Below are positions 1,191 to 64,000 of a stretch of DNA of 64,000 bases, piece after piece. A program made the position numbers and the translations under genes. Source of the stretch: Escherichia coli. Lineage in GTDB: Bacteria > Pseudomonadota > Gammaproteobacteria > Enterobacterales > Enterobacteriaceae. The first letter of the stretch is position 1; every line of letters begins with the position of its first letter. Location of the stretch: the NCBI RefSeq assembly GCF_003019035.1, contig NZ_CP027447.1. One strand, 5' to 3'. The notes beneath the pieces are model-generated. The model made no database searches. It was not told the DNA's origin and saw only the letters and a program-made list of their open reading frames with translations.

Positions 1191-2400
<1,210 letters not shown>

Positions 2401-2404
<4 letters not shown>

Positions 2405-3779: not shown

Positions 3780-3789
3780 AAGCCGCCCC

Positions 3790-4845: not shown

Positions 4846-4859
4846 GAGATAGTCCTTTA

Positions 4860-5396
4860 TTAATTTTGTTCGTTATCGGCGTCGCCAGCCTGGTAATATT
4901 CCAGCGCCCAGCGGATACGGATAAATTCTGTTGGCCGCTGCTGACGGCGGTGATGGTTGAGCAGGTCGTCACTCTCCTGGCACCAGCGGAAAATATCGTC
5001 TGCCAAAGAGATAAGATTGACGGAACCGTTTAATAATTTGACCGCGCGACGTAACTGGCGCAGTAAATCATCCGGCGTTTTGACTGCCGACAGGCGAGTA
5101 AAACGCCCCTCAGACATTACCGCCGCCAACTGCGCGGCAAAAGGCTGCCGTTCATCAATGGCTTTTACATTGGCGGCAACGGCGGCAACCAGCGCCAGTG
5201 CGGTAAAACGCCACTCCTGTGATTCAATTTTCCACAACGTGTGGGTCTGCATCAGCAGAGAACGAAAACCTTCTGACAGACAAACATCATTAACCGTTGT
5301 GCTACGCCGCAGACTGGCACGATTGCCGCGTTTTTCCTGCAACTCTTCGAGCCATTTACGCAGCGTGGCTTTGTGCTCCTCTTTTACAATACTCAT
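4860..5396 (-). CDS. casB: CasB / Cse2 Cascade small subunit
   Basis: 178-aa ORF in the Cse2 slot between casA and casC; sequence is divergent from the K-12 CasB I remember, so the call rests mainly on position and size. Confidence 0.72.
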   Translation of the reverse strand: MSIVKEEHKATLRKWLEELQEKRGNRASLRRSTTVNDVCLSEGFRSLLMQTHTLWKIESQEWRFTALALVAAVAANVKAIDERQPFAAQLAAVMSEGRFTRLSAVKTPDDLLRQLRRAVKLLNGSVNLISLADDIFRWCQESDDLLNHHRRQQRPTEFIRIRWALEYYQAGDADNEQN

Positions 5397-6961: not shown

Positions 6962-7044
6962 CCTCTCGTAAAAAAGACCATCCCTGGTCGGTTGTCCATC
7001 CTTTTTTGTGTATCAACTATTCAGAGAATCCTGTCGCAGACATC

Positions 7045-9744: not shown

Positions 9745-9938
9745 ATATTAAAAATTATCTGTGATATATATCGTTCAATAAAATATTTACATTATGAATA
9801 ATCAAATAATTTTCATCCGTAATATATATGAATAATAAACATAGGCATAATATTCACATAAACAATATAAATTAAAAAAGGGTGCAGGAGACCAAACCAT
9901 CACAATTCAGTACGCGGGGTTTTACCCCCGCGTGGTGG

Positions 9939-26149: not shown

Positions 26150-26194
26150 GTGAGGAAGACCGGGCGGGAAACTGCCCGGCCTGAACATACCTGA

Positions 26195-26343
26195 ATGGTT
26201 ATCCCCGCTGACGCGGGGAACATAAGTTCGACAACTTAAAAAATGATAACAAGTCCGGTTTATCCCCGCTGATGCAGGGAACATAATAAAAACTTTAACT
26301 AGTTCGGTTTATCCCTGTTTTTACAAGGAATATTAACTACACT
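26195..26343 (-). CRISPR. Decayed orphan CRISPR remnant: 3 degenerate I-E repeats, 2 spacers
   Basis: Repeat-like units at 26195-26223, 26256-26284 (CGGTTTATCCCCGCTGATGCAGGGAACAT) and 26315-26343 (CGGTTTATCCCTGTTTTTACAAGGAATAT); spacers 32 and 30 nt. Confidence 0.7.
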
Positions 26344-26786
26344 CGATGTCTTTAGAATAAAAGACAATACGAATCGCACTTTATCAATTTTCACTTAAAG
26401 TATGAACTGGATATCTTTATTCATAAGAACTATTCATCAACAGCCTATAGAGGCGGTTATGTAAAACCACTCATTAGCCTCAAAACAAAGACAAATTTCC
26501 AGATTTATTACTTAATCAATGAATAACAAGCTTAAAAAATACACTGTTATTCTAAAGAAAAAATTAACAGGCATTAATTAATATTAAAAAAATAATAGAT
26601 TAAAATTTCTTAACGGTTTAAGGATTATACAAATAACACTTTGATTAAATTTGATTTTTTGTATCGATAATTGTGAACTTATCTGGCATGGAGAACTATT
26701 TTGAACATGAGGTGTTATGTGGATATGTTGCTTATTACAAGTACAGCTAATATAAAAACTTGAGAAAGAGATAACGGGTTATATGG

Positions 26787-27059
26787 TGGTTTATCCCCGC
26801 TGGTGCGGGGAACTCTTGGCATAGGCGCTATAGCGGCGCTCTGTGTCCGGTTTATCCCCGCTGGCACGGGGAACTCGTTGGTGCCGTTGTTGTAACCGTA
26901 GAAACCGACGGTTTATCCCCGCTGACGTGGGGAACTCGCAGGTCAACACGGGCGATAAACCCGGCTGACCGGTTTATCCCCGCTGACGTGGGGAACTCGA
27001 TAAGCAGATTGCAGAACTACAGGCGAAGGACGGTTTATCCCCGCTGACGTGGGGAACTC
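26787..27059 (-). CRISPR. Orphan type I-E CRISPR array: 5 repeats, 4 spacers
   Basis: 29-nt repeats at 26787, 26848, 26909, 26970 and 27031 (61-nt period), consensus CGGTTTATCCCCGCTGRCRYGGGGAACTC; ends in ...AACTC rather than the ...AACAC of the cas-proximal array. Confidence 0.95.
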
Positions 27060-27200
27060 TCTAAACATAACCTATTATTAATTAATGATTTTTTAAGCCA
27101 GTCACAATCTACCAACTTTACAGGATCACACAAACAACACATCCATTATGTTAAAGAACACTTAATCCATTGATTAAAAAAGTAAATATTTAAAATAACT
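27060..27200 (-). promoter_or_regulatory. Leader of the second CRISPR array
   Basis: AT-rich; CTAAACATA... start and CACAATCTACCAAC at 27104-27117 parallel the first leader at the same distance from repeat 1. Confidence 0.55.
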
Positions 27201-27397
27201 CTATACCCACTAAAATCTACCAAACTTTACCGCAATAATTTTCACTCCAACGAAAAATTAACGCCACAGAATTTGTAGAGAATGATAATGATTAGCCCAG
27301 AATGGGCAAAATGGAGTTTTTTCAGAGGCGACAAAGAATATAAATAAGTGGAAGTCTTTACAGGTTCCACCCATTTATAACGCTTATAAATGTTTAA

Positions 27398-28241: not shown

Positions 28242-28844
28242 ATGCTCAGGATATTCATCGTAATTATATTTATTGTCAATTTATCAGGCTGTGGATATAA
28301 CGATATTCAAACCTATGATGAGCAGGTTAACGCCTCCTGGTCTGAGGTATTGAATCAATATCAACGTCGCGCCGATCTTATTCCTAATCTTGTCGCCAGT
28401 ATTAAAGGTTATTCCAGCCATGAACAAGAGGTACTGGAAGCCGTAACATTGGCACGTAGCCAGGCTAATCGCGCCAGTAGCGATCTTCAGCAAGCTCCGG
28501 GAGATGCGCAAAAATTACAAGCCTGGCAACAAGCCCAGGCGCAGGTGTCTCGCACTCTCGGTCAGTTAACGATAATTAGTGAACGTTACCCTGAGTTAAA
28601 AGCTCAGGAACTCTATCAAAACTTAATGGTACAGCTCGAAGGAAGTGAAAATAGAATTGCCGTTGCGCGAGGAAGATATATTAAAGCCATTGAACAATAT
28701 AATGTCACTATCCGCAAATTCCCCGCTGTATTAACCGCAAAGGTCATGGATTACACACCAAAGAAAAATTATTTGCCGGATGATGTCACCGCAGTAAGTA
28801 AAGCCCCAACAATAGATTTTAGCCAGAATGCTAATGCGCATTAA
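28242..28844 (+). CDS. LemA-family lipoprotein
   Basis: 200-aa ORF with signal peptide and lipobox (LSGC), then a LemA-like helical region (NASWSEVLNQYQRRADLIPNLV). Confidence 0.85.
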   Translation: MLRIFIVIIFIVNLSGCGYNDIQTYDEQVNASWSEVLNQYQRRADLIPNLVASIKGYSSHEQEVLEAVTLARSQANRASSDLQQAPGDAQKLQAWQQAQAQVSRTLGQLTIISERYPELKAQELYQNLMVQLEGSENRIAVARGRYIKAIEQYNVTIRKFPAVLTAKVMDYTPKKNYLPDDVTAVSKAPTIDFSQNANAH

Positions 28845-28857
28845 GCGGGGAAGTTCT

Positions 28858-29751
28858 ATGCGAAATTTTATCTTCCTTATGGCTTTCTTCTGTTCATCTG
28901 TGTTTGCCACACAAATTCCAGTACCTGAATCCCCCAAGTATGTGAATGACTTAACCGGCACATTAACAAACAGCGAAGTAAACACCCTGACCAACCAGAT
29001 TAAAGCCCTGACGCAAAAAAACCACGCACAGTTGGTCGTGTTAGTGGTTGATACAACAGGCGATGAAACCATCGAGCAGTACGCAACGCGGGTATTCGAT
29101 AGCTGGAAACCGGGTGATAAAGACCGCGATGATGGCGTTCTACTGTTAGTCGCCTGGCAGGATCATACCGTGCGTATTGAAATCGGTTACGGACTGGAAG
29201 GTATTATTACGGATGCACAGTCCGGGAAAATTATTCGCAACAGTATTATTCCGGCATTTAAAAAAGGCGACCTGGCTGGTGGTTTACAAAAGGGGATCAA
29301 CGATATTGAAAGTCGCCTGACGGGGAATAATTCAGCAACGATAACACCGACCGATCACCCTTTGCCCTTTAGCGGTTGGTGGGCTTTGTTAGTCTGGGCG
29401 ATAATACTGACGTTTATTTCTGCCAGAGGATATATCAAAACGCTGGGACTGATTTGCTTCGCAGCTATTGTACTGGCCTTTGTTTTACCTATAGCAGGTT
29501 TCAGCGGAAGCTGGGGAGTGCTCGCAACATTACTCTGCTTCGCCACACCGTTCCTGGCTGTCGCCATCGCTTTTACTCCCTTCGGCAAAAAGGTTCGGGA
29601 TTCGATGCGTAATACCAACCAGCCATCACGCCATACAAGAAGTAATTCTTCCTCCCACTATTCGTCATCGTCATCCTCTTCATTCGACAATGACAATTTC
29701 CGCGGTGGTGGCGGTTCATCTGGTGGCGGTGGCGCTTCCGGACGCTGGTAA
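28858..29751 (+). CDS. TPM-domain membrane protein (YgcG-like), paralog 1
   Basis: Frame of ORF 28828-29751; start at MRNFIFLMAFF (signal peptide) after GGGGAAG; TPM core ([24 protein letters not shown]), 2-3 TM helices, Ser-rich linker and tail [15 protein letters not shown]. Confidence 0.85.
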   Translation: MRNFIFLMAFFCSSVFATQIPVPESPKYVNDLTGTLTNSEVNTLTNQIKALTQKNHAQLVVLVVDTTGDETIEQYATRVFDSWKPGDKDRDDGVLLLVAWQDHTVRIEIGYGLEGIITDAQSGKIIRNSIIPAFKKGDLAGGLQKGINDIESRLTGNNSATITPTDHPLPFSGWWALLVWAIILTFISARGYIKTLGLICFAAIVLAFVLPIAGFSGSWGVLATLLCFATPFLAVAIAFTPFGKKVRDSMRNTNQPSRHTRSNSSSHYSSSSSSSFDNDNFRGGGGSSGGGGASGRW

Positions 29752-29765
29752 CAAAAGGAATTGAT

Positions 29766-30914
29766 ATGCGTATTTTTCTCTTACTTCTGATGCTATGCGG
29801 TTTTCAGGTATTCGCTGAACAATTGCCTTCAGTAACTGACTTAACCGGGACATTAACGACAGAAGAACAAACTGCTTTAAATCAACAATTACAGACTCTC
29901 GAGCAGCAAAACCACTTCCAGGTGGCCGTGTTGGTTACGCCGACTACAGGGGGCAAAAACATTAAACTTGCAGCCTCGCAGAGATACGGGTTATATCACT
30001 GGAAACCCGTTGGAGAGAAGCGATATGGCGAAGGTATCTTAATTCTCGTCGTATGGCCGGAAGGGCTGGCGTCAATGAAGATTGGACATGGACTGGAACA
30101 GATGTTGCCGCCAGAACAAGCTGCGCAAATTGTTCGTTACCATATGCAGCCAGAATTCGAAAAAAGCAATCTCTTTGCTGGATTAACGGGCGGAATTGAA
30201 AGCATCGCACAGTTTACCCATATCAAAGCGAACCTTAGCCCTTTGGATGCTTTAGCCAATCATCTGTTTGCTAATCCACAACGTTCGCTGCCATGTCTTG
30301 CCTGGACACTGCTGATGATCGTTGCCATCGTTGTCCTCTGGCGATTTACCAGCCGTCCTGGGCCTGGCATATGGATGATATCGATGATTACCCCTATGGT
30401 CTGGTTTTTCTTCTTTCAGGATGATGTCATCATTCGGCGGGTGTCGATCGTTTGTTTTAGTTTATTGTTAGCAACAACCTGCTGGCAGCGTCTCGCGGTA
30501 GTTTTTAATATGTGCCGCGCATTTCCTATGATGCTGGCCCCCAAAAATAAAAACACTAAAGTGAAAAAACAAAAGAAGACCCAGCAATTTCCTGAATCAG
30601 GACGAAATTCATTGTTTGTCGTGATGCTGATAATTGTTGTGGGATGGTGCCTGGTGTTCGCCAGTAATAAAGATATTGCATTCATCTCAACAATTATTGG
30701 GTTAATTGATCATTTTATCGGCCCAATAACCATTGCTGGCATCGTTCTGCTGATCATTGTGGCCAAATTTACTGGCAATCTTAAACTGGGGTCAGGAGAA
30801 AAAAGCAACAGGAAAACGGGGAATCGTAATGCTCATTCTCGCTCTTCGTCGAAAAATTCTTTCCGCGGTGGCGGCGGTTCTTCAGGAGGCGGCGGTTCAT
30901 CCGACCGTTGGTGA
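29766..30914 (+). CDS. TPM-domain membrane protein, paralog 2 (extended multi-TM insert)
   Basis: 382-aa ORF: signal peptide, TPM core, about 5 hydrophobic segments, lysine-rich linker, tail [17 protein letters not shown]. Confidence 0.85.
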
Positions 30915-30919
30915 TCGTT

Positions 30920-31792
30920 ATGCGTATAATCCTTTTTCTACTCACTTTATGGTGCCTTCCTGTGCTTGCCCAGCAAATTGCTGTGCCGGAGCTGCGCCAA
31001 CAGGTGACCGATATTACTGGTACCTTAAGCACGTCTGAACAACAATCACTAACACAACAGCTGCAGGATATTACACAAAAAACACGGGCACAGGTCGCTG
31101 TATTAATAGTGCCATCCACCGGAGACGATTCTATTGAACAATATGCTACAAGAGTTTTTGACAATTGGCGTTTAGGAGATGCCAAACGTAATGATGGGAT
31201 ACTGATCATTGTTGCCTGGTCGGATCGTACTGTCCGCATCCAGGTAGGTTATGGGCTGGAAGAAAAGGTAACCGATGCTCTGGCTGGCAATATCATCCGT
31301 AGCATCATGATACCCGCCTTTAAAAAACAAAAATTAGCTAAGGGATTAGAATTAGCTATAATCGCTTTGAATAACCAACTCACTTCACAACACCAATATT
31401 CGTCTAATCCTTCAGAAAGTGAATCAGCGTCTTCCAGTGATCATTACTACTTTGCTATTTTTTGGGTATTTGCAGTGATGTTCTTCCCTTTCTGGTTTTT
31501 TCATCAAGGCAATAATTTTTGTCGGGCATTTAAAAGCAGTGTTTGTATTTCAACAGTCTATCTTATAGATTTATTCCTGTTCTCCGATCAAACTTTTTCC
31601 ATTGCTGTATTTTCCTTCTTTTTTACTTTCACCACCATTATGGTCTTTACCTGTTTATGTGTACTTCAGAAAAAAGCATCTGGTAGAAGTTATCATTCAG
31701 ACAACAGCGGTTCCGGTGGCGGCTCAAGTGGCGGCGGATTTAGCGGCGGGGGCGGTTCTTCTGGCGGTGGCGGCGCGTCCGGTCGCTGGTAA
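30920..31792 (+). CDS. TPM-domain membrane protein (YgcG-like), paralog 3
   Basis: Frame of ORF 30908-31792 (track start is a TTG at 30908; first ATG at 30920); TPM core close to paralog 1, tail ...[15 protein letters not shown]. Confidence 0.85.
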
Positions 31793-35964: not shown

Positions 35965-36300
35965 CTACCCAATCAGCACGTTAATTTTGGCTTTAATGAG
36001 TTGTAATTCCTCTGGGGCAACTGTTCCTTTCTTCGTTGCTCCTCTTGCCCGCCAGGCGATACTTTTTACCTGATCAGCTAACGCTACGCCATCACGTTCC
36101 TGACCGGATAGAACAACTTCGAACGGATATCCTTTTGATTGCGTTGTACAAGGAACACACAGACACATACCTGTTTTGTTGTTGTACATGAACGGACTCA
36201 GGACAACAGCCGGACGATGTCCGGCTTGCTCGCTACCTTTTGTCGGGTCAAAATCAACCCAAATCAGATCGCCCGTATCGGGTACGTATCGGCTTACCAT
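35965..36300 (-). CDS. mazF: MazF mRNA interferase toxin
   Basis: 111-aa [39 protein letters not shown]... matches MazF. Confidence 0.96.
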   Translation of the reverse strand: MVSRYVPDTGDLIWVDFDPTKGSEQAGHRPAVVLSPFMYNNKTGMCLCVPCTTQSKGYPFEVVLSGQERDGVALADQVKSIAWRARGATKKGTVAPEELQLIKAKINVLIG

Positions 36301-36548
36301 TACCAGACTTCCTTATCTTTCGGCTCCCCCCAGTCGATATTCTCGTGGAGGTTTTCCGGCGTGATGTCGTTGACCAGTTCAGCAAGCGTAAATACGGGCT
36401 CTTTACGCACTGGCTCAATAATTAATTTTCCATCCACCAGGTCAATCTTCACTTCATCATCAATATTCAGATTGAGCGCCTGCATTAACGTAGCCGGGAT
36501 CCGCACTGCAGGAGAATTTCCCCAACGCTTTACGCTACTGTGGATCAT
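36300..36548 (-). CDS. mazE: MazE antitoxin
   Basis: 82-aa [30 protein letters not shown]... (AbrB-fold antitoxin); stop overlaps mazF start. Confidence 0.96.
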
Positions 36549-36625: not shown

Positions 36626-38860
36626 CTAACTCCCGTGCAACCGACGCGCGTCGATAACATCCGGCACCTGGTTGAGTTTACCCAGCACGCGCCCCAGCAC
36701 TTGCAGGTTGTAAATCTCAATGGTCATGTCGATGGTCGCCAGTTGCTGTTTGGTGTCGCTACGGCTGGCAACGCCAAGTACGTTCACCTTCTCGTTGGCG
36801 AGAATGGTCGTGATATCACGTAACAACCCACTACGATCATTAGCCACCACGCGGACCACCAGCGAATATCCGGCGGAGTAGCTCTCGCCCCATACCGCGT
36901 CAACAATGCGTTCTGGCGCATGGGAGCGCAGTTCCGCCAGTTGTTCGCAATCGGCGCGGTGTACTGAAATACCGCGCCCCTGGGTAATGAAGCCGACAAT
37001 CTCATCTCCAGGAATCGGCTGGCAGCAGCGCGCGATGTGGTGCATCAGGTTACCGACACCTTCTACCACCACACGACCGTTATCTTTACTGCGGTTTTGC
37101 GGCGTGTAGCTTTTTTGCTGAAGCTGTTTCAGCGCGGCGGCATCCTGCTCTTCGGCACTCGGCTTATTAAATTGCGATTGCAGGAAGTTCACCATCTGAT
37201 TGAGACGGATATCCCCGCCACCAATCGCCGCCAGCAACTCGTCGACATCATTGAAGTTGTAACGCGGCAGCAGGTGTTTTTCTGCTTCTTTCAGGCTGAT
37301 CCCCAGATGTTCCAGCTCGTCGTCAAGGATTTGCCGCCCAGCCAGAATGTTTTTGTCACGATCCTGTTTACGGAACCAGGCGTGAATTTTCGAGCGCCCA
37401 CGACTGGTTGTGACGTAACCGAGATTTGGGTTTAACCAGTCACGGCTGGGGTTCGGCTGTTTCTGGGTGATAATTTCAATCTGGTCGCCCATCTGCAGCT
37501 GGTAGGTGAACGGCACAATGCGCCCGCCAATTTTTGCCCCGATGCAGCGGTGTCCGACATCACTGTGGATGTGGTAAGCGAAGTCCAGCGGTGTTGATCC
37601 CGCAGGCAAATCAACGACATCACCTTTCGGCGTAAAGACGTACACCCGGTCGTCAAAGACCTGGCTACGTACTTCGTCGAGCATTTCGCCGGAATCAGCC
37701 ATCTCTTCCTGCCACGCAATCAGTTTACGCAGCCAGGCAATCCGGTCTTCATGTCCCGAACGTGCGCCGCCAGCTGCCGCGCCCTCTTTATATTTCCAGT
37801 GCGCAGCAACACCCAACTCTGCATCTTCATGCATCTGTTTAGTGCGGATTTGGATCTCAACGGTTTTGCCACCTGGTCCCAGAACCACGGTATGAATAGA
37901 CTGATAACCGTTTGGTTTCGGGTTAGCGACGTAATCGTCAAACTCATCCGGCAGGTGGCGATAGTGAGTGTGCACTATCCCCAGTGCGGCATAACAATCC
38001 TGTAAACGCTCGGCGACAATACGTACCGCACGCACATCAAACAGCTCATCGAAGGCGAGGTTCTTTTTCTGCATTTTGCGCCAGATGCTGTAGATGTGTT
38101 TCGGACGACCATACACTTCAGCTTTAACGCCTTCAGCTTTCATCTCAGCGCGCAGATGGCCGACAAACTCTTCGATATAGTGTTCGCGGTCGAGACGGCG
38201 TTCATGCAGCAGTTTTGCGATGCGTTTGTATTCGGTCGGGTGGAGATAACGGAAGCAGTAATCTTCCAGCTCCCATTTCAGTTGTCCAATCCCAAGACGG
38301 TTCGCCAACGGCGCGTAGATATTGGTGCACTCTTTTGCCGCCAGTACGCGTTCATCTTCCGGCGCGTCTTTTACTTCGCGCAGATGAGCAATACGCTCTG
38401 CCAGTTTGATGACCACGCAGCGAAAATCATCGACCATCGCCAATAACATCCGGCGAACGTTATCGACCTGTTCGGAGGAAACAGAATCGGTATGCGTCGC
38501 TTTCAGCTGGCGGATCGCCGCCATATCACGCACGCCGTGAATAAGGTTAACGACCGACTTACCGACGCTCTCACGCAGCACATCTTCGCTGACTACGTTG
38601 GCATCGGCCAGAGGGAACAGCAGCGCCGCCCGCAGCGTGTCAATGTCCATACTTAATGTCGAGAGGATCTCCACCATCTCAACACCACGCCACAATAACA
38701 GACTGGCATCCGGATGCCCCTGCGTCTGTTGCAGACAATACGCCCAGGTTTCGGCTAAGCACTCACACGACTTCTGGCTGGTAATACCCAGACTTGCGAT
38801 CCATTTTTCCGGATCAAATTCACCAGCCTTATTGATATGTGCACTTCTTACCGCAACCAT
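36626..38860 (-). CDS. relA: GTP pyrophosphokinase, (p)ppGpp synthetase I
   Basis: 744-aa ORF with the RelA N-terminus MVAVRSAHINKAGEFDPEKW..., synthetase, TGS and ACT regions. Confidence 0.98.
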   Translation of the reverse strand: MVAVRSAHINKAGEFDPEKWIASLGITSQKSCECLAETWAYCLQQTQGHPDASLLLWRGVEMVEILSTLSMDIDTLRAALLFPLADANVVSEDVLRESVGKSVVNLIHGVRDMAAIRQLKATHTDSVSSEQVDNVRRMLLAMVDDFRCVVIKLAERIAHLREVKDAPEDERVLAAKECTNIYAPLANRLGIGQLKWELEDYCFRYLHPTEYKRIAKLLHERRLDREHYIEEFVGHLRAEMKAEGVKAEVYGRPKHIYSIWRKMQKKNLAFDELFDVRAVRIVAERLQDCYAALGIVHTHYRHLPDEFDDYVANPKPNGYQSIHTVVLGPGGKTVEIQIRTKQMHEDAELGVAAHWKYKEGAAAGGARSGHEDRIAWLRKLIAWQEEMADSGEMLDEVRSQVFDDRVYVFTPKGDVVDLPAGSTPLDFAYHIHSDVGHRCIGAKIGGRIVPFTYQLQMGDQIEIITQKQPNPSRDWLNPNLGYVTTSRGRSKIHAWFRKQDRDKNILAGRQILDDELEHLGISLKEAEKHLLPRYNFNDVDELLAAIGGGDIRLNQMVNFLQSQFNKPSAEEQDAAALKQLQQKSYTPQNRSKDNGRVVVEGVGNLMHHIARCCQPIPGDEIVGFITQGRGISVHRADCEQLAELRSHAPERIVDAVWGESYSAGYSLVVRVVANDRSGLLRDITTILANEKVNVLGVASRSDTKQQLATIDMTIEIYNLQVLGRVLGKLNQVPDVIDARRLHGS

Positions 38861-40265: not shown

Positions 40266-43022
40266 ATGACCAACTACAGCCTGCGCGCACGCATGATGAT
40301 TCTGATCCTGGCACCGACCGTCCTTATTGGTTTATTGCTGAGTATCTTTTTCGTCGTGCATCGCTATAACGACTTGCAGCGTCAACTGGAAGATGCCGGT
40401 GCCAGCATTATTGAGCCGCTTGCAGTTTCTACTGAATATGGCATGAGTCTGCAAAATCGCGAATCTATCGGTCAGTTAATAAGCGTACTGCATCGTCGCC
40501 ATTCCGATATTGTTCGCGCGATTTCGGTTTATGATGAAAATAACCGACTCTTTGTCACCTCCAATTTTCATCTTGATCCCTCATCAATGCAGCTCGGCAG
40601 CAACGTGCCGTTTCCTCGCCAGCTCACTGTCACTCGTGACGGCGATATAATGATCCTCCGCACGCCGATTATTTCTGAAAGTTACTCCCCCGACGAATCG
40701 CCCAGTAGCGATGCCAAAAATAGTCAAAATATGCTGGGATATATTGCGCTGGAGCTGGATCTTAAATCGGTTCGCTTGCAGCAATATAAAGAGATCTTTA
40801 TTTCCAGCGTGATGATGCTGTTTTGTATCGGTATTGCGCTTATTTTTGGCTGGCGCTTAATGCGCGATGTTACCGGCCCGATTCGCAACATGGTGAATAC
40901 CGTCGACCGCATCCGTCGTGGGCAACTCGATAGCCGGGTGGAAGGATTTATGCTTGGTGAGCTGGATATGCTGAAAAACGGTATCAACTCGATGGCAATG
41001 TCGCTGGCGGCTTATCACGAAGAGATGCAACACAATATCGACCAGGCGACGTCCGATCTGCGTGAAACGCTGGAGCAGATGGAGATTCAGAACGTTGAGT
41101 TGGATCTGGCGAAAAAGCGCGCCCAGGAAGCGGCGCGTATTAAATCCGAGTTTCTGGCAAATATGTCACACGAGCTGCGTACACCACTGAATGGTGTTAT
41201 TGGCTTTACCCGCCTGACGCTGAAAACAGAATTAACACCAACGCAGCGCGATCACCTGAATACGATTGAACGTTCGGCAAATAATTTGCTGGCAATTATT
41301 AATGATGTTCTCGACTTCTCGAAACTGGAAGCCGGTAAGCTGATTCTGGAAAGTATTCCATTCCCACTACGCAGCACGCTGGATGAAGTCGTTACCCTGC
41401 TGGCACATTCTTCTCACGATAAAGGGCTGGAACTGACGCTCAATATTAAAAGCGACGTGCCTGATAACGTGATCGGCGACCCACTACGATTACAGCAAAT
41501 CATCACTAACCTGGTGGGGAATGCAATTAAATTCACCGAGAATGGCAACATTGATATTCTGGTAGAAAAACGTGCGCTGAGTAATACCAAAGTGCAAATT
41601 GAAGTGCAGATTCGGGATACCGGCATTGGTATTCCTGAACGCGATCAATCGCGCTTATTCCAGGCCTTCAGACAGGCTGATGCCAGTATTTCCCGCCGTC
41701 ATGGTGGCACCGGGCTGGGGCTGGTGATTACACAAAAACTGGTTAATGAAATGGGCGGTGATATTTCGTTCCATAGCCAGCCGAATCGTGGTTCAACTTT
41801 CTGGTTCCACATTAATCTCGATCTGAACCCGAACATTATTATCGAAGGGCCATCCACCCAGTGCCTCGCCGGTAAGCGCCTGGCCTATGTCGAACCAAAC
41901 TCCGCAGCAGCGCAATGCACGCTGGATATTTTAAGTGAAACGCCGCTGGAAGTGGTTTATAGCCCAACGTTCTCCGCGCTGCCTCCCGCGCATTACGACA
42001 TGATGTTATTAGGCATAGCGGTGACCTTCCGCGAGCCGCTAACAATGCAACATGAGCGATTAGCGAAAGCAGTATCGATGACCGATTTCCTGATGCTGGT
42101 ACTTCCTTGCCATGCACAAGTCAATGCTGAAAAACTTAAGCAAGATGGTATCGGCGCGTGTCTGCTGAAACCATTAACACCTACGCGCCTGTTGCCTGCC
42201 CTGACGGAATTTTGTCATCACAAACAAAACACGCTTTTGCCTGTAACCGATGAAAGTAAGCTGGCAATGACAGTCATGGCGGTTGATGACAACCCCGCTA
42301 ACCTGAAACTTATCGGCGCATTGCTGGAAGATATGGTGCAACATGTGGAACTTTGCGATAGCGGGCATCAGGCAGTTGAACGGGCGAAACAGATGCCGTT
42401 CGATTTAATCTTAATGGATATTCAAATGCCGGACATGGACGGCATTCGGGCATGTGAGCTCATCCACCAGCTCCCGCATCAGCAGCAAACGCCGGTTATC
42501 GCGGTAACGGCGCATGCGATGGCCGGGCAAAAAGAGAAACTGCTTGGCGCGGGGATGAGTGATTATCTGGCCAAACCGATCGAAGAAGAGCGATTGCATA
42601 ATTTGTTGTTGCGCTATAAGCCTGGCAGCGGTATTTCCTCTCGCGTCGTGACGCCCGAAGTCAACGAAATTGTGGTGAACCCGAATGCGACCCTCGACTG
42701 GCAACTGGCACTACGCCAGGCAGCAGGAAAAACCGATTTAGCGCGCGATATGCTGCAAATGTTACTCGATTTCCTGCCTGAAGTTCGCAACAAAGTTGAG
42801 GAACAGCTGGTTGGAGAAAACCCGGAAGGCCTGGTTGATTTGATTCATAAACTGCATGGCAGTTGCGGCTATAGCGGTGTGCCGCGTATGAAGAATCTCT
42901 GCCAACTGATCGAACAACAGCTACGTAGCGGTACTAAAGAAGAAGATTTGGAGCCGGAGCTGCTGGAACTGTTAGACGAGATGGATAATGTAGCGCGCGA
43001 AGCCAGCAAAATTCTCGGGTAA
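40266..43022 (+). CDS. barA: Hybrid sensor histidine kinase BarA
   Basis: 918-aa ORF: two TM segments, HAMP, HisKA (SHELRTPLN), HATPase, receiver ([10 protein letters not shown]) and C-terminal Hpt. Confidence 0.97.
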
Positions 43023-48209: not shown

Positions 48210-48992
48210 TTAGGAACTTATCTCTCCATCCTGACCCGATGGCGCACTGAACTCAACCCTTTCATTTTCAGGAAGCAGACCCCGCCAGCCAAATTGTGAT
48301 AACGCCTGCATCCAGGTGTCGTCCAGGCCCGCGTGAATAGTCAGCGGCTCGCCAGTAAAAGGATGCGTCAATGACAACTGACTGGCATGCAGCATTAACC
48401 GCTGAAGGCCAAAATGTTCAGCACCGCTGCGATTCTGGCGTAAATCACCATGTTTGCTGTCGCCAATAATCGGGTGGCGCAAATGGGCAAGATGGCGACG
48501 GAGCTGGTGCTTACGTCCGGTTTTCGGCTCCAGTTCCACCAGGCCGTAGCGCGTGGTCGGGTAACGTCCGGTCGCTACCGGCATTTCTACGGTCGCCAGA
48601 CCGCGATAATGCGTCACTGCTGGCTGCGGGCCTTTATCTTCGCGGGCAAATTTATCAGCGATTTTGTCCAGTTCTTCCACCAGTGGATAATCCAGCACCG
48701 CTTCTTCCATCAACCAGCCGCGCACAATCGCATGATAACGTTTCTGGATTTGGTGCTGTTCAAACTGTTGTGCCAGCAGCCGTCCGGCCTCGCTGGATAA
48801 TCCCATCAACAACACACCAGAAGTGGGTCGGTCCAGACGATGAGCAGTAAACACATGCTGGCCTATCAGGTCACGCACGGTTTGCATGACCACTACTTTC
48901 TCGTCGCGATCCAGCCAGCTGCGGTGAACCAGCCAGCCGGAGGGTTTATTTACCGCAACCAGCCATTCATCCTGATAGAGTATTTCCAGCAT
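48210..48992 (-). CDS. truC: tRNA pseudouridine65 synthase
   Basis: 260-aa ORF with RluA-family catalytic motif ([12 protein letters not shown]). Confidence 0.95.
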
Positions 48993-49321
48993 TAGCTCGC
49001 ATCATCCGCAAAAAGAGCATCCAGTTTTTCCAGCTCAGCCAGAATAAGCGCGCGTTGCGGGTGGTCCGTCGCCAGCGCCATTTCATAATAGGGAGCAACG
49101 GCAAAAGCGCCCGGTAACGGCTGGTTGTTTTCTAACAAATCGTGCATTCGCGGGATCAGCACCCACTGCAACCACTCCAGTGGTTCCATGGTGTCCATAA
49201 AGAACGGTTGGGTACTATTAAATTGATGCGGCTGGGGTTCATCGTTTCGCCAGTGCTGATGTTCACGCAGTAACGCTTCAAGCGCCTGCAACTGGAAACG
49301 AACGCGGTCATGAGTGGTCAT
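48992..49321 (-). CDS. yqcC: DUF446-family protein
   Basis: 109-aa ORF directly downstream of truC with overlapping stop/start. Confidence 0.85.
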   Translation of the reverse strand: MTTHDRVRFQLQALEALLREHQHWRNDEPQPHQFNSTQPFFMDTMEPLEWLQWVLIPRMHDLLENNQPLPGAFAVAPYYEMALATDHPQRALILAELEKLDALFADDAS

Positions 49322-49363
49322 AAAGCAACCTCAATAAGAAAAACTGCCGCGAAGGATAGCAGG

Positions 49364-49723
49364 AATAAAAAAAGGGAGCACTGTATTCACAGTGCTCCCG
49401 GTTCGTTTCGCAGCATTCCAGCTACTTTTGTTGCTCCCTGCTCATCCTTGACAACTTTTCCTCTGGCCTTGCGGCCAATCGTTCATCCTGAACTATTGCT
49501 TCCTGCTCACACCACCCCGATGTGATACTTCATCCTGAAGTGTCCCTGGCCTTCCTGACCCACCGAATCATCCTGACCGGTTCTCATTCTCCATCCTGGA
49601 GGTGTCCTTTAACGCGTCCTGCGTCATCCTCTTCGCTTCATCCAGAAGCCTTTCCCTGAAACACCATCCTGGTGTGTCCTTCAGAAGTGTCATCATCCTG
49701 ATGTTCACTTCGTTGTCTGACTC
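49364..49723 (-). ncRNA. csrB: CsrB, CsrA-sequestering small RNA
   Basis: Minus strand begins GAGTCAGACAACGAAGTGAACATCAGGATGATGACAC... and carries many CAGGATG/AGGA loop motifs (seen as CATCCTG on the plus strand); ends in hairpin GGGAGCACTGTGAATACAGTGCTCCC plus T-run at 49364-49410. Confidence 0.92.
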
Positions 49724-49942
49724 CCTGTCGACGAAGATAGAATCGTCTTTTTCGCGAAGTCTTACAAGGCGCTTACAGACAATGCCTTAAGGAAAATTTC
49801 ATATGAAAGTTAAGAATTGACAAGCAATATATTGATTTTAAATGAAAATAACGATTCTTATCTTTTTAAGTATTCGCTTATTTCCTGGCGATCTCCTACA
49901 GAGTCTGTAAGAGATCTCTCACAACAAGATGGGGTATTTGGA

Positions 49943-50488
49943 TTACAGAAGAGGCTTAAGTTGATTAAGGAATTCCGCAAGATTTGAGGCTAAATGCGTC
50001 CGTTTGCGTGTTCCCAGCGTCTCTTTGCACACTTCACCGGAGAGATTACACACCGAGATCACCTCTAACTCTTCTTCCAGCGTCGCGATAAATAGCGTGG
50101 GCGGCAGTTTTAGCCTTTTCTGAGTCACCAGATGACCAATCAGATTTTCCTGCACCCGACGGAAGTCGTCTTCACTCCAGGTTTGCAGCAATGTCAGTGT
50201 AATATCGCCAAACTGCGCGTGCATATCCCCGGCAAACTGAGTCGTATAAAAGGTATGAATTGTGGGTTGTATCACAATATCAAAAGCGTGTTCAACCGCG
50301 TTTACATTTTGTTCCCCGGTAAACGGCTGGGGTTGCCAGTATACGGCGTCTTCGGTGGTTGAAATAATGCACGGTGAAGGAACGCCGTACAGTTCCTCAC
50401 TCAACGGCCAGCTTTTATGCTCTTCATGCCACGCATCGCAGTAGCGTGCAGTAAAATCTTTCAGGGCTTGTGCGGTCAAATCGTCCAC
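49943..50488 (-). CDS. syd: SecY-interacting protein Syd
   Basis: 181-aa [32 protein letters not shown]... Confidence 0.93.
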
Positions 50489-58297: not shown

Positions 58298-58945
58298 TTA
58301 CTCTTCAATCCGTAACCCGTAGGTTTTGAATTTCTCCAGCACTACGGCAATCTCTTCATCGCTCAGCACTGGCACCGGGTCCGTAATCGCCAGGGTCGTC
58401 AGGTAAAGTTGTGCCAGCACTTCAACTTCATGCGCCAGCCATAACGCTTTCTCCAGATTCGCCTCACAAGCGATAAGCCCATGATGTTGTAACAAAGTTG
58501 CCTTACGATTTTTGAGAGCCAGCGCAACATGTTCAGAAAGTTCGCGTGTTCCAAAGGTCGCATAAGGCGCGCAAGGAATAGAATTACCGCCAGCCGCCGC
58601 AATCATGTAGTGAATAGCGGGGATCGGTCGGTTAAGAATGGAAACTGCCGTACAATGAACGGCATGATTGTGAACAACCGCGTTGGCATCCGGTCTGCTT
58701 TGATAGGCCGCCATATGGAAACGCCACTCGCTTGAGGGGAGTTTTCCTTCCTCATGTTTGCCGTTGCCATCAACATAGACAATCATATTCTCCGTCATTC
58801 TTTCATAAGGAATACCGCTGGGAGTAATCAACATGCCGTTTTCAAAACGTGTGCTGACATTCCCCGCTGTCCCCTGATTTAACCCAAGGCGCGTCATTTC
58901 CAGACAGGTTTCAATTATTTCACGGGATAAACGTGTTCTTTCCAT
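58298..58945 (-). CDS. fucA: L-fuculose-phosphate aldolase
   Basis: 215-aa class II aldolase ORF MERTRLSREIIETCLEMTRLGLNQGTAGNVS... Confidence 0.96.
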   Translation of the reverse strand: MERTRLSREIIETCLEMTRLGLNQGTAGNVSTRFENGMLITPSGIPYERMTENMIVYVDGNGKHEEGKLPSSEWRFHMAAYQSRPDANAVVHNHAVHCTAVSILNRPIPAIHYMIAAAGGNSIPCAPYATFGTRELSEHVALALKNRKATLLQHHGLIACEANLEKALWLAHEVEVLAQLYLTTLAITDPVPVLSDEEIAVVLEKFKTYGLRIEE

Positions 58946-59077
58946 TTCTATTCTCCAGATACAGTTTCAGCTCGCCTTGTTGCGTAAAACAGCACCGCAA
59001 ATGAAGACGGGGTTATTTTTAGTAAGGGGAGGCCACTGAATATCAGTGTTCAGTAGCCTGATATCTTTTGCCGATTA

Positions 59078-60076
59078 TTATTTTTTTCTTATGCGCTTAA
59101 TTAATTTCATTTCTACTTTGACTGTTTTTTTGACTGGTCTTTCTTCGATCGCGCTTAACATCATTTCGAACGCTTTTTCTGCCCAGGCATTTTCATCCTG
59201 CTGCATTGACCAGACATTGTTGGCGAGAAATCCCAGCATAGGATGTTCATCGAAAGTGCCAATATTGATTTCTGGCGGTACAGCGCCAAGACGGTCGCGA
59301 ATCGCGCGGACAGCGCCTTCAAGCACAGGTAAAGACGAGGCGATAAATGCCTGCGGACATCCCTGCTCTTCAATGAGTTTTTCCATAATGACATAGCCGC
59401 CTTCCGGAGTATTTACCGGACCTTCCCGCACCCAATCGCGATGGGTAATCCCTTTTTTTGCCAACGCATTCAAATAACCTGTCAGACGATCGCTGATACT
59501 CGGCAAACCGGCATCTCCCAGCAAAAACCATACTGGAGCCTGCCCGGCCTCAAGAATATTTTGCGTCAGCTTTTCTCCGCCAGAAATATTATTACTCTCT
59601 ACCAATGCGTTATCGGTATATTTAAAATCACGATCGAGTAAAACCATTGGCTTACGAATTTTGCGTAAATGATGCTGCTGATTTTCCAGCGTCGAAGGAA
59701 CAATAAAAAGACCATCAACATTTCGTGCGATAAATGCTTTCGTCAATTTATTTTCATAGTCAACATCATCATAAGTACAACTGATCGTAAGTTGATATCC
59801 GGAACGTCGACAGCGTTGTTCGAGTTTTTCTGCCAGCGTAGCAAAAAAGACGTTGGATATGTTGGGAACAATCAACCCTAATGTATCAGTTTTGTTAAGC
59901 TTAAGGCTGCGAGCGGAATGATTAATGATATAACCATAGCGTTCAACATATTCATTGATACGCGTTTGGGTTTTGACGCTGATTCGATATTGTTCCGCTT
60001 TTCCATTTAGCACCAGTCGCACGGTCGTAACCGATAAATTCAGGTCGCTGGCTATCTGCTCTACTGTTTTAGCCAT
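59078..60076 (-). CDS. LacI-family transcriptional regulator
   Basis: 332-aa ORF with N-terminal HTH (MAKTVEQIASDLNLSVTTVRLVLNG) and periplasmic-binding-fold effector domain. Confidence 0.85.
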   Translation of the reverse strand: MAKTVEQIASDLNLSVTTVRLVLNGKAEQYRISVKTQTRINEYVERYGYIINHSARSLKLNKTDTLGLIVPNISNVFFATLAEKLEQRCRRSGYQLTISCTYDDVDYENKLTKAFIARNVDGLFIVPSTLENQQHHLRKIRKPMVLLDRDFKYTDNALVESNNISGGEKLTQNILEAGQAPVWFLLGDAGLPSISDRLTGYLNALAKKGITHRDWVREGPVNTPEGGYVIMEKLIEEQGCPQAFIASSLPVLEGAVRAIRDRLGAVPPEINIGTFDEHPMLGFLANNVWSMQQDENAWAEKAFEMMLSAIEERPVKKTVKVEMKLIKRIRKK

Positions 60077-60140
60077 AGGTATTTCCCAGTTAACATCCAG
60101 ACGTCAAATCACAATCATAAAAGTATTTTCAACTTTTGTC

Positions 60141-61721
60141 TTATTGCATCAGTTGGTTAACCGCCTGTTGTTGCTCCCAAAGCGTCAGGTAAACCCGGTA
60201 TTTACGCTCTAAAAATTCACGGCGTTGTGGATTTACCTGAATAACCTCTCCGGCCTCAACCATTGCTTTACACGCAGATGTAAAATCCCCCCATGCTCCG
60301 CTGGCAACAGCGCCGCTAATTGCTGCGCCCAACGTAACGGCATCTTCTTCTTGCATCAGGTGGATATCGCAACCTGTCACGTCTGCATATTCGCGTAGCC
60401 ATAAAGGGTTGTGCGTTGCACCACCACATAATGTTAATCGGGTAATGGTATGCCCATTTTCCCGCAGAGTTTCAATAATATGTCTGGTGCCAAAGGCTAT
60501 TGCCTGTAAAGTCGCAAGATAAAGCCGCGCGAGCTGATTTTCACCACGCTCCAGTGTTAAGCCATAAACACTGCCTCTGGCATCGGGCCGCGCTCGTGGC
60601 GAACGGTTGCCGTGATGATCGGCAAGCACATGTAAATTTCGTGTGGGTTCTGACTCGTTAGCTTCCAGGGCGGCTACCCATTCATTAATCAGTTGAATCG
60701 GATGACACCCGCGTTGCTGCGCCTTGTTAAAAAGATTTGCGCTTGCCCCGGACTCCTGAAGCGTCCACTCCACCAGCGCCCCTGCGGCGCTTTGCCCGCC
60801 TTCAGTTAGCCAGTAATTTGGCAACATGGCCGACCAGTATGGCCCCCAGACGCCAGGGGTGAATATTTCTTTTTCACTGCACAACATATGGCAATTCGAC
60901 GTTCCGCTTATCAATGCCAGCGTTCCTGATGGCTGCGCGCCAGCCAGCGCCATGCCACCGGCATGGGCATCAATCAAACCACTGGCCACGATAACATTGG
61001 TCGTTAATCCTAATTCTTCAGCAGCTGTGGCAGTTAAAGTTCCCACGGCAGCACCAGGCGGAAGAATTTCGGCGGGAATTCTTTCGAGCATGTCGGTCAG
61101 GTCTACCGATTCCAGTAAGCTATGGCTAAAGCGTTGTTCATGAGCCAGATAATTCCATTTACACGTTAGCGTGCACAATCCCGCGACGTCTCGCCCTGTT
61201 GCTTTCCAGACCAGAAAATCCGCCAGATCGAAAAAGCGATGAGCGGCCTGCCAGGTTTGCGGTAGATGCGTCTTCAACCAACGTAACTTTGGTAACTCCA
61301 TCTCGACGCTCACTTCGCCGCCAACGTAGCGCAATGCGGGATCCTTCGTTGCGTTAATCTGCGCCGTCTCGACAGTTGCACGATGATCCATCCACATAAT
61401 AATGTCGTGATTCGCAGATCCACCGGACGAAACCGCTAAACCCTGGCCTTGTTCATCAAGAACAACCAGCGAGCAGGTAGCGTCAAAACCCAGTGAGCGA
61501 ATTGCGGAAATGGGGATGCCTGCCAAAGCTGTCGCCTCTTTCACCGTTTTACAAACTTGTTGCCAGATCTCTGCCGAAGACTGTTCGACACGCTCGCCGC
61601 CAGGGCGAAACTGGGAGACGGGCGCAGTAGCGAATGCCAGCCTGTGGCCACTGGCACTGTAAACGCCTGCCCTGACACTGGCCGATCCGACATCGACACC
61701 GAGAAAATAACCGTTGTGCAT
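60141..61721 (-). CDS. FGGY-family sugar (pentulose-type) kinase
   Basis: Frame of ORF 60141-61769; likely start MHNGYFLGVDVGSASVRAGVY (FGGY N-terminal motif); C-terminal GGATHNPLW region. Confidence 0.82.
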   Translation of the reverse strand: MHNGYFLGVDVGSASVRAGVYSASGHRLAFATAPVSQFRPGGERVEQSSAEIWQQVCKTVKEATALAGIPISAIRSLGFDATCSLVVLDEQGQGLAVSSGGSANHDIIMWMDHRATVETAQINATKDPALRYVGGEVSVEMELPKLRWLKTHLPQTWQAAHRFFDLADFLVWKATGRDVAGLCTLTCKWNYLAHEQRFSHSLLESVDLTDMLERIPAEILPPGAAVGTLTATAAEELGLTTNVIVASGLIDAHAGGMALAGAQPSGTLALISGTSNCHMLCSEKEIFTPGVWGPYWSAMLPNYWLTEGGQSAAGALVEWTLQESGASANLFNKAQQRGCHPIQLINEWVAALEANESEPTRNLHVLADHHGNRSPRARPDARGSVYGLTLERGENQLARLYLATLQAIAFGTRHIIETLRENGHTITRLTLCGGATHNPLWLREYADVTGCDIHLMQEEDAVTLGAAISGAVASGAWGDFTSACKAMVEAGEVIQVNPQRREFLERKYRVYLTLWEQQQAVNQLMQ

Positions 61722-61774
61722 AAAGCCTCCCTGACGCTGGAGATAACGGGGATGAGAATTCATCCCCAATTTTT

Positions 61775-62725
61775 TTATTTCTTACCGAATGGGTGCAGGA
61801 GTTTGTCGATTTCTGGCGTGTTAATATTCTCGGCATTAACAAATTTCACGGGAATATCGATCTCTTTTTCAACGGCTTGCCCCGAAAGGGCCGCGTTCAA
61901 CGTTTTGATCCCTTGATAGCCAATCTGGTATGCATCCTGAACAACAAAGCCCTGAATGACCCCGTTCTTCAGGAAGTTAATAATCGCTTCCGTACTATCA
62001 AAACCAATGACCTTCACCTTACCTTTCAGATTCTGGCTATCAATGGCATTCGCCACCCCGAGCGTTGAACCTTCATTGGTGCCATAGATCCCAGCAAGAT
62101 CGGGATTGGCCTGAATCATATCGATAGTTTTATCCATCGCTTTTTGCGGGTCACCATCGCTGTACTGAACGGGTAAGACTTTAATGTCAGGATATTTTTC
62201 TTTCATACGCTCCATGAAGCCTTCCGAGCGTTCAATAGCGGAAGATGTTCCTGCAACGTGCGCGATAATCCCAACTTTCCCTTTATTATTTACCTGCGCA
62301 GCTAAGGCATCAGCTGCCTGAGCACCTGCTTTACGGTTATTGGTGGCGACAAAACTCACCGGAATGTCTGAATTGATGCCTGAATCAAAGGTCACCACTT
62401 TGATACCGCGTGAATTTGCCGTTTCTACCAGTGGGGCGAGCGCATTCGCGTCGAGGGCTGCCAGAAGCAAGCCATTCGGTTTCTGCGCCATCGCATTTTC
62501 GACTAACTGAATTTGCTCGGCTATTTGCGTTTCATCAGCCGGGCCAACATAGCTGGTTTTATCCCCCAACTCTTTAGCCGCAGCTTCAGTCCCCATTTTT
62601 ACGGTTTGCCAGAATTCATGTTGGAAACCTTTACTAACAACCGGAAGATTTAAATCCTTCGCCAGTGCGCTGGAAGTTACGCAGGCCAGCAGAGATAACG
62701 CATAGATAAAATGCCTGGTTTTCAT
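61775..62725 (-). CDS. Periplasmic sugar-binding protein of ABC transporter (RbsB-like)
   Basis: Frame of ORF 61775-62848; start at MKTRHFIYALSLLACVTSSALA (signal peptide); type I periplasmic binding fold. Confidence 0.82.
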   Translation of the reverse strand: MKTRHFIYALSLLACVTSSALAKDLNLPVVSKGFQHEFWQTVKMGTEAAAKELGDKTSYVGPADETQIAEQIQLVENAMAQKPNGLLLAALDANALAPLVETANSRGIKVVTFDSGINSDIPVSFVATNNRKAGAQAADALAAQVNNKGKVGIIAHVAGTSSAIERSEGFMERMKEKYPDIKVLPVQYSDGDPQKAMDKTIDMIQANPDLAGIYGTNEGSTLGVANAIDSQNLKGKVKVIGFDSTEAIINFLKNGVIQGFVVQDAYQIGYQGIKTLNAALSGQAVEKEIDIPVKFVNAENINTPEIDKLLHPFGKK

Positions 62726-62798
62726 TGTTGTACTCCGTTCTGAGTGAATCACCCTTAACGTCAGGGCAGTTGTTTCCCGATAAAACAGGGAGCCTAAG

Positions 62799-63782
62799 TC
62801 AACGAATCTTTTTGCGTAATGTATCGAGGTAAACGGCAGCGACCACAACGACGCCCATCGCGACCATTTGCCAGAACTGGGAGACGCCCATTAAATTGAG
62901 GCCATTTTTCAGTACACTCATAATGAAAGCGCCAATGATTGTGCCGCCAATAGTGCCAATACCGCCCATTAAGCTGGTTCCGCCAATCACTACCGCGGCA
63001 ATAGCTTCCAGTTCATAACCCACACCTACCGTCGGTTGTCCGGAGTTGAGACGAGATGCCAGAATGACACCTGCAATCCCCGTTAATAATCCACAGAAGG
63101 CATAGACGAAAATTTTCACGCGCTGAACTTTAATACCAGAAAGATGAGCAGCAACTTCATTACTGCCTACGGCATAGACATAGCGACCAATGACGGTTTT
63201 CTTCAGGATGTAAGCGCCGACAAGCGCTACAATGACAAGGTAGAAAACAGGATAAGGCAGCACATCAAATAAGCGTCCCTGAGCGAGCGTTTTGAACATC
63301 GGGTAATCGGCAAAATAGATGGCGCGCCCGTCAGTCATCACCATATTGATACCTCTGACGGACATCATCAGGCCCAACGTAGCGATAAACGGTGGAATGG
63401 TCATTTTAGTGACCAACAAACCATTCACATAGCCGCACAATCCACCGGCCAAAACACCAGCAATAATACACACAGGCAGCGGCAGGCCCAGCGTGGCGCA
63501 AATACCTACGGCGACACCAGAAAAAGCCACCACGGAGCCCAATGAAAGATCGATGCCAGCGGTAATAATGACGAAAGTTACCCCAATGGCCATAATGCCG
63601 ATTACCGACGTTTGTAGAGCAATCGTCATGATATTTTCGGTATTAAAGAAAAAGGGAGAGCTGAAACTAAAAAATAGCACCAATATAATTAAGCTAAAAA
63701 GAGGTGCAAGGCGCATCAAAAGTTCTTTATTTATCTTTATTTTCTTATTATTACTGTCTGGAGAGGTTACAGAGATAGTCAT
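62799..63782 (-). CDS. ABC sugar transporter permease (RbsC-like)
   Basis: 327-aa multi-TM ORF with branched-chain/sugar permease signature (GGIDLSLGSV). Confidence 0.85.
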   Translation of the reverse strand: MTISVTSPDSNNKKIKINKELLMRLAPLFSLIILVLFFSFSSPFFFNTENIMTIALQTSVIGIMAIGVTFVIITAGIDLSLGSVVAFSGVAVGICATLGLPLPVCIIAGVLAGGLCGYVNGLLVTKMTIPPFIATLGLMMSVRGINMVMTDGRAIYFADYPMFKTLAQGRLFDVLPYPVFYLVIVALVGAYILKKTVIGRYVYAVGSNEVAAHLSGIKVQRVKIFVYAFCGLLTGIAGVILASRLNSGQPTVGVGYELEAIAAVVIGGTSLMGGIGTIGGTIIGAFIMSVLKNGLNLMGVSQFWQMVAMGVVVVAAVYLDTLRKKIR

Positions 63783-63785
63783 AAT

Positions 63786-64000
63786 TTAATCCTCTAACGT
63801 CGCGTATTGCATGATTTTTTCTTGTGTCGCTTCATTTGCGCTAAGTTCGCCAGTAATTCGACCACTGCGCATCACTAAAATACGGTCGCACATTCCTAAC
63901 ACCTCTGGCAATTCAGAGGAGATCATGATGATTGATTTCCCTTTTGCCACCAGGCGATTCATTAACTCATAGATTTCCAGTTTGGCGCCAACATCAATGC
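63786..64000 (-). CDS. ABC transporter ATP-binding protein, C-terminal fragment (runs off window)
   Basis: Hand translation of minus strand: ...[64 protein letters not shown]-stop (stop is complement of 63786-63788); typical end of the second nucleotide-binding domain of RbsA-like ATPases. Not in ORF track (no start in window). Confidence 0.75.

Follow-up and report, generated by a model that had tools for sequence, protein, structure and literature searches.

The csrB locus of an Escherichia coli genome: a non-coding CsrB RNA beneath four short open reading frames

CsrB and related CsrA-binding RNAs

The small RNA CsrB of Escherichia coli has a counterpart, CsrC, which is shorter and is encoded at a different locus. 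In E. coli K-12, the GGA sites of CsrB take up multiple CsrA dimers and so keep them from mRNAs of lower affinity (PMC4682653, PMC5027483). Twenty-two GGA sites have been published for this RNA, seven of them in a +226 fragment and five in a +263 fragment, with site 22 located inside the terminator stem, and the 'necessary cleavage site' of RNase E was described as a stretch of 9 nt directly before the terminator, with two adenines at its end (PMC5027483). The UvrY-P site of E. coli csrB was reported as a palindrome of defined sequence, centred at -183/-182 and accompanied by an extra half-site, and a putative IHF site was placed between two UvrY crosslinking regions (PMC4682653). CsrA titration by multiple GGA sites and BarA-UvrY control are common to CsrB and CsrC, but the UvrY site of CsrC is less symmetric and IHF is not needed for it (PMC4682653). 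The RNAs RsmY and RsmZ of Pseudomonas and RsmB of Erwinia/Pectobacterium are likewise GGA-hairpin sponges for CsrA/RsmA proteins under the orthologous two-component system of GacS/GacA type (PMC4682653), although they are separate RNAs of other taxa; in pseudomonads CsrD is missing, and the sRNAs are protected from decay by proteins of the CsrA family (PMC5027483).

We analysed a stretch of 64,000 nucleotides of E. coli (contig NZ_CP027447.1 of assembly GCF_003019035.1), hereafter the window, in which a csrB locus lies on the minus strand beneath several short open reading frames (ORFs). When compared to K-12 CsrB, the RNA encoded here has the same length of 369 nt, the same neighbours yqcC and syd, the same number of 22 GGA motifs, a terminator, a palindrome at -183/-182 and the additional half-site, and 367 of its 369 bases are identical (99.5%). 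The first of the two differences, an A at RNA position 52 where K-12 has a C, changes CAGGA to AAGGA at GGA site 3. The second, an A instead of a G at RNA position 340, replaces a G-U pair of the K-12 terminator stem by an A-U pair, A being the base found at this position in almost all other species. Neither difference removes a GGA motif or a base pair, and both are harmless.

Identity and architecture of the csrB gene

Both strands of the whole window were scanned with the Rfam 15 covariance models at their gathering thresholds, and two matches were obtained, CsrB and the sok antitoxin RNA. The CsrB match (RF00018) covers minus-strand positions 49723..49364 and the full length of the model (1-356 of 356) with 382.9 bits (E = 2.2e-111), far above the gathering score of 71, and was found on the minus strand only. 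A preliminary description of the window had placed CsrB on the minus strand at 49364-49723, coordinates with which those of the Rfam match agree exactly, and would have withdrawn the assignment had no Rfam CsrB match been found there; the search returned an overwhelming one. The interval is nevertheless slightly shorter than the gene. In the annotation of K-12 MG1655, the ncRNA gene csrB (b4408) spans 2924156..2924524, i.e. 369 nt, between yqcC and syd, and it maps gap-free and collinearly to window positions 49364..49732 on the minus strand. According to this annotation the transcription start is at 49732, not at 49723, and the 3' end is at 49364. The K-12-based 5' end is located 9 nt upstream of the Rfam boundary, and these 9 nt bring in the 22nd GGA. 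The gene is flanked downstream by yqcC (48992..49321, minus strand; ORF list and K-12 annotation) and upstream by syd (49943..50488, minus strand; ORF list, K-12 annotation and homologues in other species). We conclude that positions 49732..49364 of the minus strand almost certainly constitute csrB, encoding the non-coding 369-nt RNA CsrB, and that the four short ORFs overlying it are chance frames. No feature of the sequence speaks against this assignment.

CsrB and CsrC belong to the same Rfam clan (CL00106) and are both built of GGA hairpins, so that one might ask whether the locus encodes CsrC or some other RNA of the Csr/Rsm clan, or is a copy that has decayed and lost its function. The best-scoring clan model over the region in the cmscan search was CsrB, matched over all 356 positions, and K-12 csrB has the same location between yqcC and syd. 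Decay is contradicted by the intact set of 22 GGA sites, terminator and UvrY site, and by the 367 of 369 bases shared with K-12 csrB. Both possibilities can safely be neglected.

A search of 5426 complete E. coli genomes found the 360-nt interval in 5425, in each case with at least 95% identity and in 5180 of them with at least 99%. The exceptions in this search were one genome without a match and one carrying a 77% partial match together with a second match place; one match place sits on a plasmid. In strain SK1144, which served for comparison along the window, csrB is 100% identical to the window copy and its flanks are 96-98% identical.

GGA motifs are strongly concentrated on the RNA strand, which has 22 of them over the 369 nt as opposed to two on the other strand; within the 360-nt interval the counts are 21 and two. 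These candidate CsrA-binding sites extend over 49398..49724 (minus strand), the first G of sites 1 to 8 being located at 49724, 49698, 49679, 49669, 49655, 49643, 49629 and 49619, that of sites 9 to 15 at 49607, 49596, 49592, 49573, 49555, 49545 and 49535, and that of sites 16 to 22 at 49503, 49488, 49461, 49447, 49437, 49419 and 49398. Numbered in this way, they reproduce the published site bookkeeping (PMC5027483). Compared to 2000 dinucleotide-preserving shuffles of the 360-nt interval, longer forms of the motif were strongly enriched: AGGA occurs 14 times (4.8 ± 2.0 in the shuffles, a single one of which reached 14), CAGGA nine times (shuffle mean 1.3) and AGGATG eight times (shuffle mean 0.35), the last two counts being reached in none of the 2000 shuffles. 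No other 360-nt stretch of the 64 kb is as rich in AGGA as csrB, which has 14 copies; the median is 1 copy, and the plus strand never exceeds 4. In the minimum free energy (MFE) fold, 17 of the 22 GGA motifs are fully unpaired and nine lie in hairpin loops; the unpaired share of all nucleotides is 45%. The repeated GGA motifs on which the preliminary description had relied, and whose count in predicted loops it had proposed as a check, are thus mostly single-stranded or in hairpin loops, as is typical of the RF00018 family.

Folding energy gave no discrimination between the two strands of csrB: both fold far better than shuffled sequences, with z-scores of -4.45 for the sense and -5.82 for the antisense strand, as a sequence rich in hairpins should. 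The assignment to the minus strand is therefore based on the covariance model, on the GGA count of 22 against two, on the U-tract following the terminator stem and on the side on which the UvrY site and the promoter lie. The intrinsic terminator announced by the preliminary description is present at 49374..49399 (minus strand) as a hairpin of the form GGGAGCACUGU-GAAU-ACAGUGCUCCC, with a stem of 11 pairs, seven of them G-C, and a 4-nt loop. Read from 49399 to 49374, the stem is followed by a run of seven T on the minus strand only, which in the RNA gives the U-tract U7 (49373..49367) and the 3' end AUU (together 49364..49373), so that CsrB terminates in the Rho-independent manner characteristic of its family. 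On the plus strand the tail beyond the stem reads GGTTCGTTTC and is not T-rich, which argues that termination occurs on the minus strand. The RNAalifold consensus retains the outer part of the terminator stem, where eight species show a compensatory replacement of A-U by G-C. Between the hairpin of GGA site 21 and the terminator lies the single-stranded linker GCGAAACGAACC (49402..49413, minus strand), a candidate RNase E site that is almost invariant across 71 aligned sequences. We infer that the cleavage site falls within this linker (49413..49402) from its position relative to the terminator, the published bases being shown only as a figure.

Upstream of the gene, the 18-nt palindrome TGTGAGAGATCTCTTACA (49906..49923, minus strand) is an exact match to the published UvrY-P binding sequence, and its centre at -183/-182 is at the published distance, which is separate evidence for a transcription start at 49732. 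It was also recovered as an inverted repeat in a repeat search. An extra half-site, TGTAGGAGA, was found by pattern match 5 bp downstream of the palindrome (49892..49900, minus strand). The complete arrangement of TGTGAGAGATCTCTTACA, 5 bp and TGTAGGAGA occurs once in the window (49923..49892, minus strand) and never in shuffled sequences. Among the matches listed, the palindrome was found with at most three mismatches in all 65 species with enough upstream sequence, in 64 of them at -181 to -185, against at least five mismatches for the best match in random 260-mers; the UvrY/SirA (GacA-type) palindrome expected upstream of a CsrB gene is thereby present. A candidate IHF site, AATCAATATATTG (49825..49837, minus strand, -105 to -93), matches the consensus WATCAANNNNTTR and falls between the two published UvrY crosslinking regions. 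Since this consensus is weakly specific, with nine matches in the window against 2.9 expected, it was kept as a candidate only. A sigma-70 scan of both strands of 49200-50000 returned no promoter at a threshold of 9/12. By eye, a candidate weak sigma-70 promoter can be proposed at 49739..49767 (minus strand), consisting of TTGTAA (49767..49762), a 17-nt spacer and GATTCT (49744..49739). It fits 7 of 12 consensus positions and was positioned with the help of the K-12 5' end and of the published distance to the UvrY site; such a weak core promoter would be consistent with a dependence on activators.

By analogy with the near-identical K-12 RNA, the window allele would be expected to sequester CsrA (PMC5027483, PMC4682653). 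Induction would begin with carboxylates sensed by BarA, leading to phosphorylation of UvrY and to occupation of the palindrome by UvrY-P (PMC4682653). UvrY-P together with IHF, helped by ppGpp/DksA, would then activate csrB transcription from the weak promoter (PMC4682653), and the GGA sites of the resulting CsrB would bind multiple CsrA dimers and keep CsrA off lower-affinity mRNAs (PMC4682653, PMC5027483). Turnover would begin with a cut by RNase E immediately upstream of the terminator, a cleavage that CsrA bound at GGA sites 20 and 21, starting in the window at 49437 and 49419 respectively, is predicted to block and CsrD to release from this block (PMC5027483).

Conservation of the RNA and of the overlapping reading frames

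A collection comprising one genome per species was scanned with a conserved pattern of about 19-20 bases from the 3' part of csrB, which yielded at least 120 stretches. Of the 120 listed, 111 contain a CsrB homologue according to nhmmer. The other nine, for instance from Algoriphagus and Anaerolineae, showed no nhmmer similarity to CsrB, were considered chance matches and were dropped. Among the matches listed, homologues of Syd and YqcC flank csrB in all 72 informative loci of other species, i.e. those with enough sequence on both sides of the gene; together with the K-12 annotation, this places the window copy at the orthologous position of Enterobacterales. An alignment including the flanks was built from 68 full-length orthologues of other Enterobacterales species, 63-99% identical to the window and likewise drawn from the matches listed. 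Each of these orthologues carries 20-28 GGA on the RNA strand against 1-4 on the other. Mean conservation over the 68 species was 0.90 for GGA triplets against 0.56 for other triplets, the conservation of GGA sites 19 and 20 being by construction, as the search pattern covers them. RNAalifold on 71 sequences predicted a consensus of 53 pairs, mostly short hairpins with GGA loops plus the terminator, and 24 of the 53 pairs show compensatory double changes: the loops are conserved while the stems covary.

One locus stands apart in copy number. Enterobacillus tribolii DSM 103736 (NZ_QRAP01000005.1) carries three full-length csrB genes in tandem on the minus strand, about 610 bp apart, at 7700-8078, 8311-8690 and 8922-9299 (L076:7700-9299), each scoring 232-239 bits against RF00018. 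It is the sole exception among the matches listed, all other loci having one search-pattern match each.

Four ORFs of at least 45 codons overlie csrB. The preliminary description had named two, of 71 and 62 aa on the plus strand, and had called them spurious; both exist, but both exceed the 49364-49723 interval, and their number is four rather than two. The 71-aa ORF (ORF71, 49310..49525, plus strand) is antisense to the 3' half of csrB, begins 54 nt past the 3' end of the gene and overlaps the start of yqcC by 12 nt. The 62-aa ORF (ORF62, 49602..49790, plus strand) is antisense to the 5' part and the promoter and continues past the csrB transcription start, to end 58 nt upstream of it. A further antisense ORF of 45 aa (ORF45, 49522..49659, plus strand) and a 46-aa ORF in the sense of CsrB, with a GTG codon at RNA position 25 (ORF46, 49568..49708, minus strand), complete the set. 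All four are regarded as non-genes.

That one or more of the three plus-strand ORFs are real small-protein genes antisense to csrB is a reading prompted by their mere existence, by their being intact in K-12 too and by the deposition of the 71-aa and 45-aa sequences as hypothetical proteins. An exact-sequence lookup retrieved the former as "hypothetical protein, partial", within a cluster of 636 members made up mostly of automatic metagenome gene calls and including a RefSeq WP_ record, and the latter as EFJ78586.1, whereas the exact 62-aa sequence is absent from a collection of 15 billion proteins. These entries are unreviewed gene-caller output without functional evidence, and for ORF71 and ORF62 the databases offer no relatives other than unnamed gene calls from this same locus. 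A Pfam search with all four ORFs gave no match, even at E ≤ 1, and the scan of 49200-50000 described above gave no promoter-like site on either strand.

The fate of the frames in other species is more telling. Each ORF was followed from its aligned start codon through the 68 orthologues and was counted as open when at least 80% of its length could be read. The start was kept and the frame open in 7 of 68 for ORF71, in 6 of 68 for ORF62 (four of them Escherichia) and in 4 of 68 for ORF45. Length differences fall into all three phases: modulo 3 (0/1/2), they are distributed 26/19/23 for ORF71, 35/17/16 for ORF62 and 21/22/25 for ORF45. The reading frames of ORF71 and ORF62 are therefore not preserved in the way expected of protein-coding genes, while the RNA on the opposite strand remains 63-99% identical with covarying stems. 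Frameshifting indels that are tolerated while RNA, GGA motifs and stems are conserved are the signature of a non-coding gene. In addition, the 12 PGAP-annotated complete E. coli RefSeq records listed have no feature whatever over csrB, and two of these, checked in full, carry no CDS there. We consider antisense protein genes at this position highly improbable.

The sense ORF raises a different question, namely whether CsrB could be a dual-function RNA from which the 46-aa frame (49708..49568) is translated with the help of AGGA motifs, which resemble Shine-Dalgarno sequences. This frame is contained in an abundant transcript, the GGA and AGGA motifs do look like ribosome-binding sequences, and databases list the exact 46-aa sequence, on 62 contigs, as a hypothetical protein, among others as ECP_2774 in E. 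coli 536 and in UniRef. No AGGA, however, is found at Shine-Dalgarno distance from the GTG, the nearest upstream GGA being 16 nt away, within GGGAGUC. The ORF has no Pfam match, its start codon is kept in 22 of the 68 orthologues and its frame is open in 14, and in 44 of 68 the length difference is no multiple of three (24/12/32 modulo 3). Furthermore, a study that combined RNA-seq with Ribo-seq in E. coli O157:H7 (EHEC) gave a ribosome coverage value of 0.04 for CsrB, which was presented as an example of an untranslated RNA (PMC5331693). Such a dual function is accordingly very hard to reconcile with the data and very unlikely. Young small proteins need not be conserved and Ribo-seq covered few conditions, so that translation in some condition of an Escherichia-restricted ORF, most plausibly the 46-aa sense frame (GTG at 49708), is conceivable; the lineage-specific dual-function CsrB that would result is one to which we give scarcely any credence.

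Lacking any conserved ORF and any Pfam match, and showing no translation in published Ribo-seq, the gene has the non-coding character of the RF00018 family, and we retain csrB, with overlying chance frames, as the reading of the locus. The dismissal of the 71-aa and 62-aa ORFs in the preliminary description is likewise borne out by the absence of Pfam matches, by their lack of conservation across the 68 species and by the untranslated state of CsrB (PMC5331693).

Genomic surroundings and annotation of the locus

Two genes connected with csrB regulation lie within 13 kb of it, according to coordinates mapped from the SK1144 annotation: barA (about 40266-43022, plus strand), encoding the sensor kinase responsible, via UvrY, for the activation of csrB, and relA (36626-38860, minus strand), encoding the ppGpp synthase, a positive input to csrB transcription. 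This closeness is the normal arrangement in E. coli.

Other features of the window were noted, several of them in segments where it differs from SK1144. At 517-667 there is a CRISPR array with type I-E-like repeats CGGTTTATCCCCGCTGGCGCGGGGAACAC (period 61, 2.5 copies), followed by a complete-looking type I-E cas3-casABCDE-cas1-cas2 set (about 700-9870, from the annotation of matching genomes), which is absent from SK1144. The sok antitoxin RNA (RF01794; 10076-10233, minus strand) scored 111 bits, the gathering score being 59. From the annotation of the syntenic SK1144 region, it adjoins a gene for a Hok/Gef-family toxin, between cysH and the cas genes; sok and this toxin gene are a chromosomal hok/sok locus. 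The segments 26155-27395 and 28274-31361 have no SK1144 counterpart, and SK1144 has a sucrose (PTS/porin/hydrolase) cluster in the neighbourhood; they appear to form a variable region around queE and ygcE. Two neighbouring ORFs of 111 and 82 aa, which we take to be MazF and MazE, are located at 35965-36548 (minus strand) between relA and mazG, in a segment missing from SK1144, where mazG is annotated as frameshifted. Finally, at 58925-64000, just past fucA, the sequence departs from that of SK1144, which has fucP there. This accessory island carries a sugar ABC transporter, an FGGY-family kinase and a LacI-type regulator, and its sequence is 100% identical to that of strain SCU-301; of the 5426 complete E. 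coli genomes, only 385 have it.

As for csrB itself, no CDS and no ncRNA is annotated at the gene in the SK1144 record, and among the records examined the csrB ncRNA is named only in the curated K-12 record. The warning in the preliminary description that the interval should not be annotated as coding was justified, three of the ORFs being already present in public databases as "hypothetical proteins". The csrB gene reported here is an ordinary copy of a gene that has been known and characterised for decades, and carries no biological news. The practical value of the analysis is one of annotation hygiene: an ORF-based track misleads at csrB, and a covariance-model pass is needed for the locus to receive its correct label.
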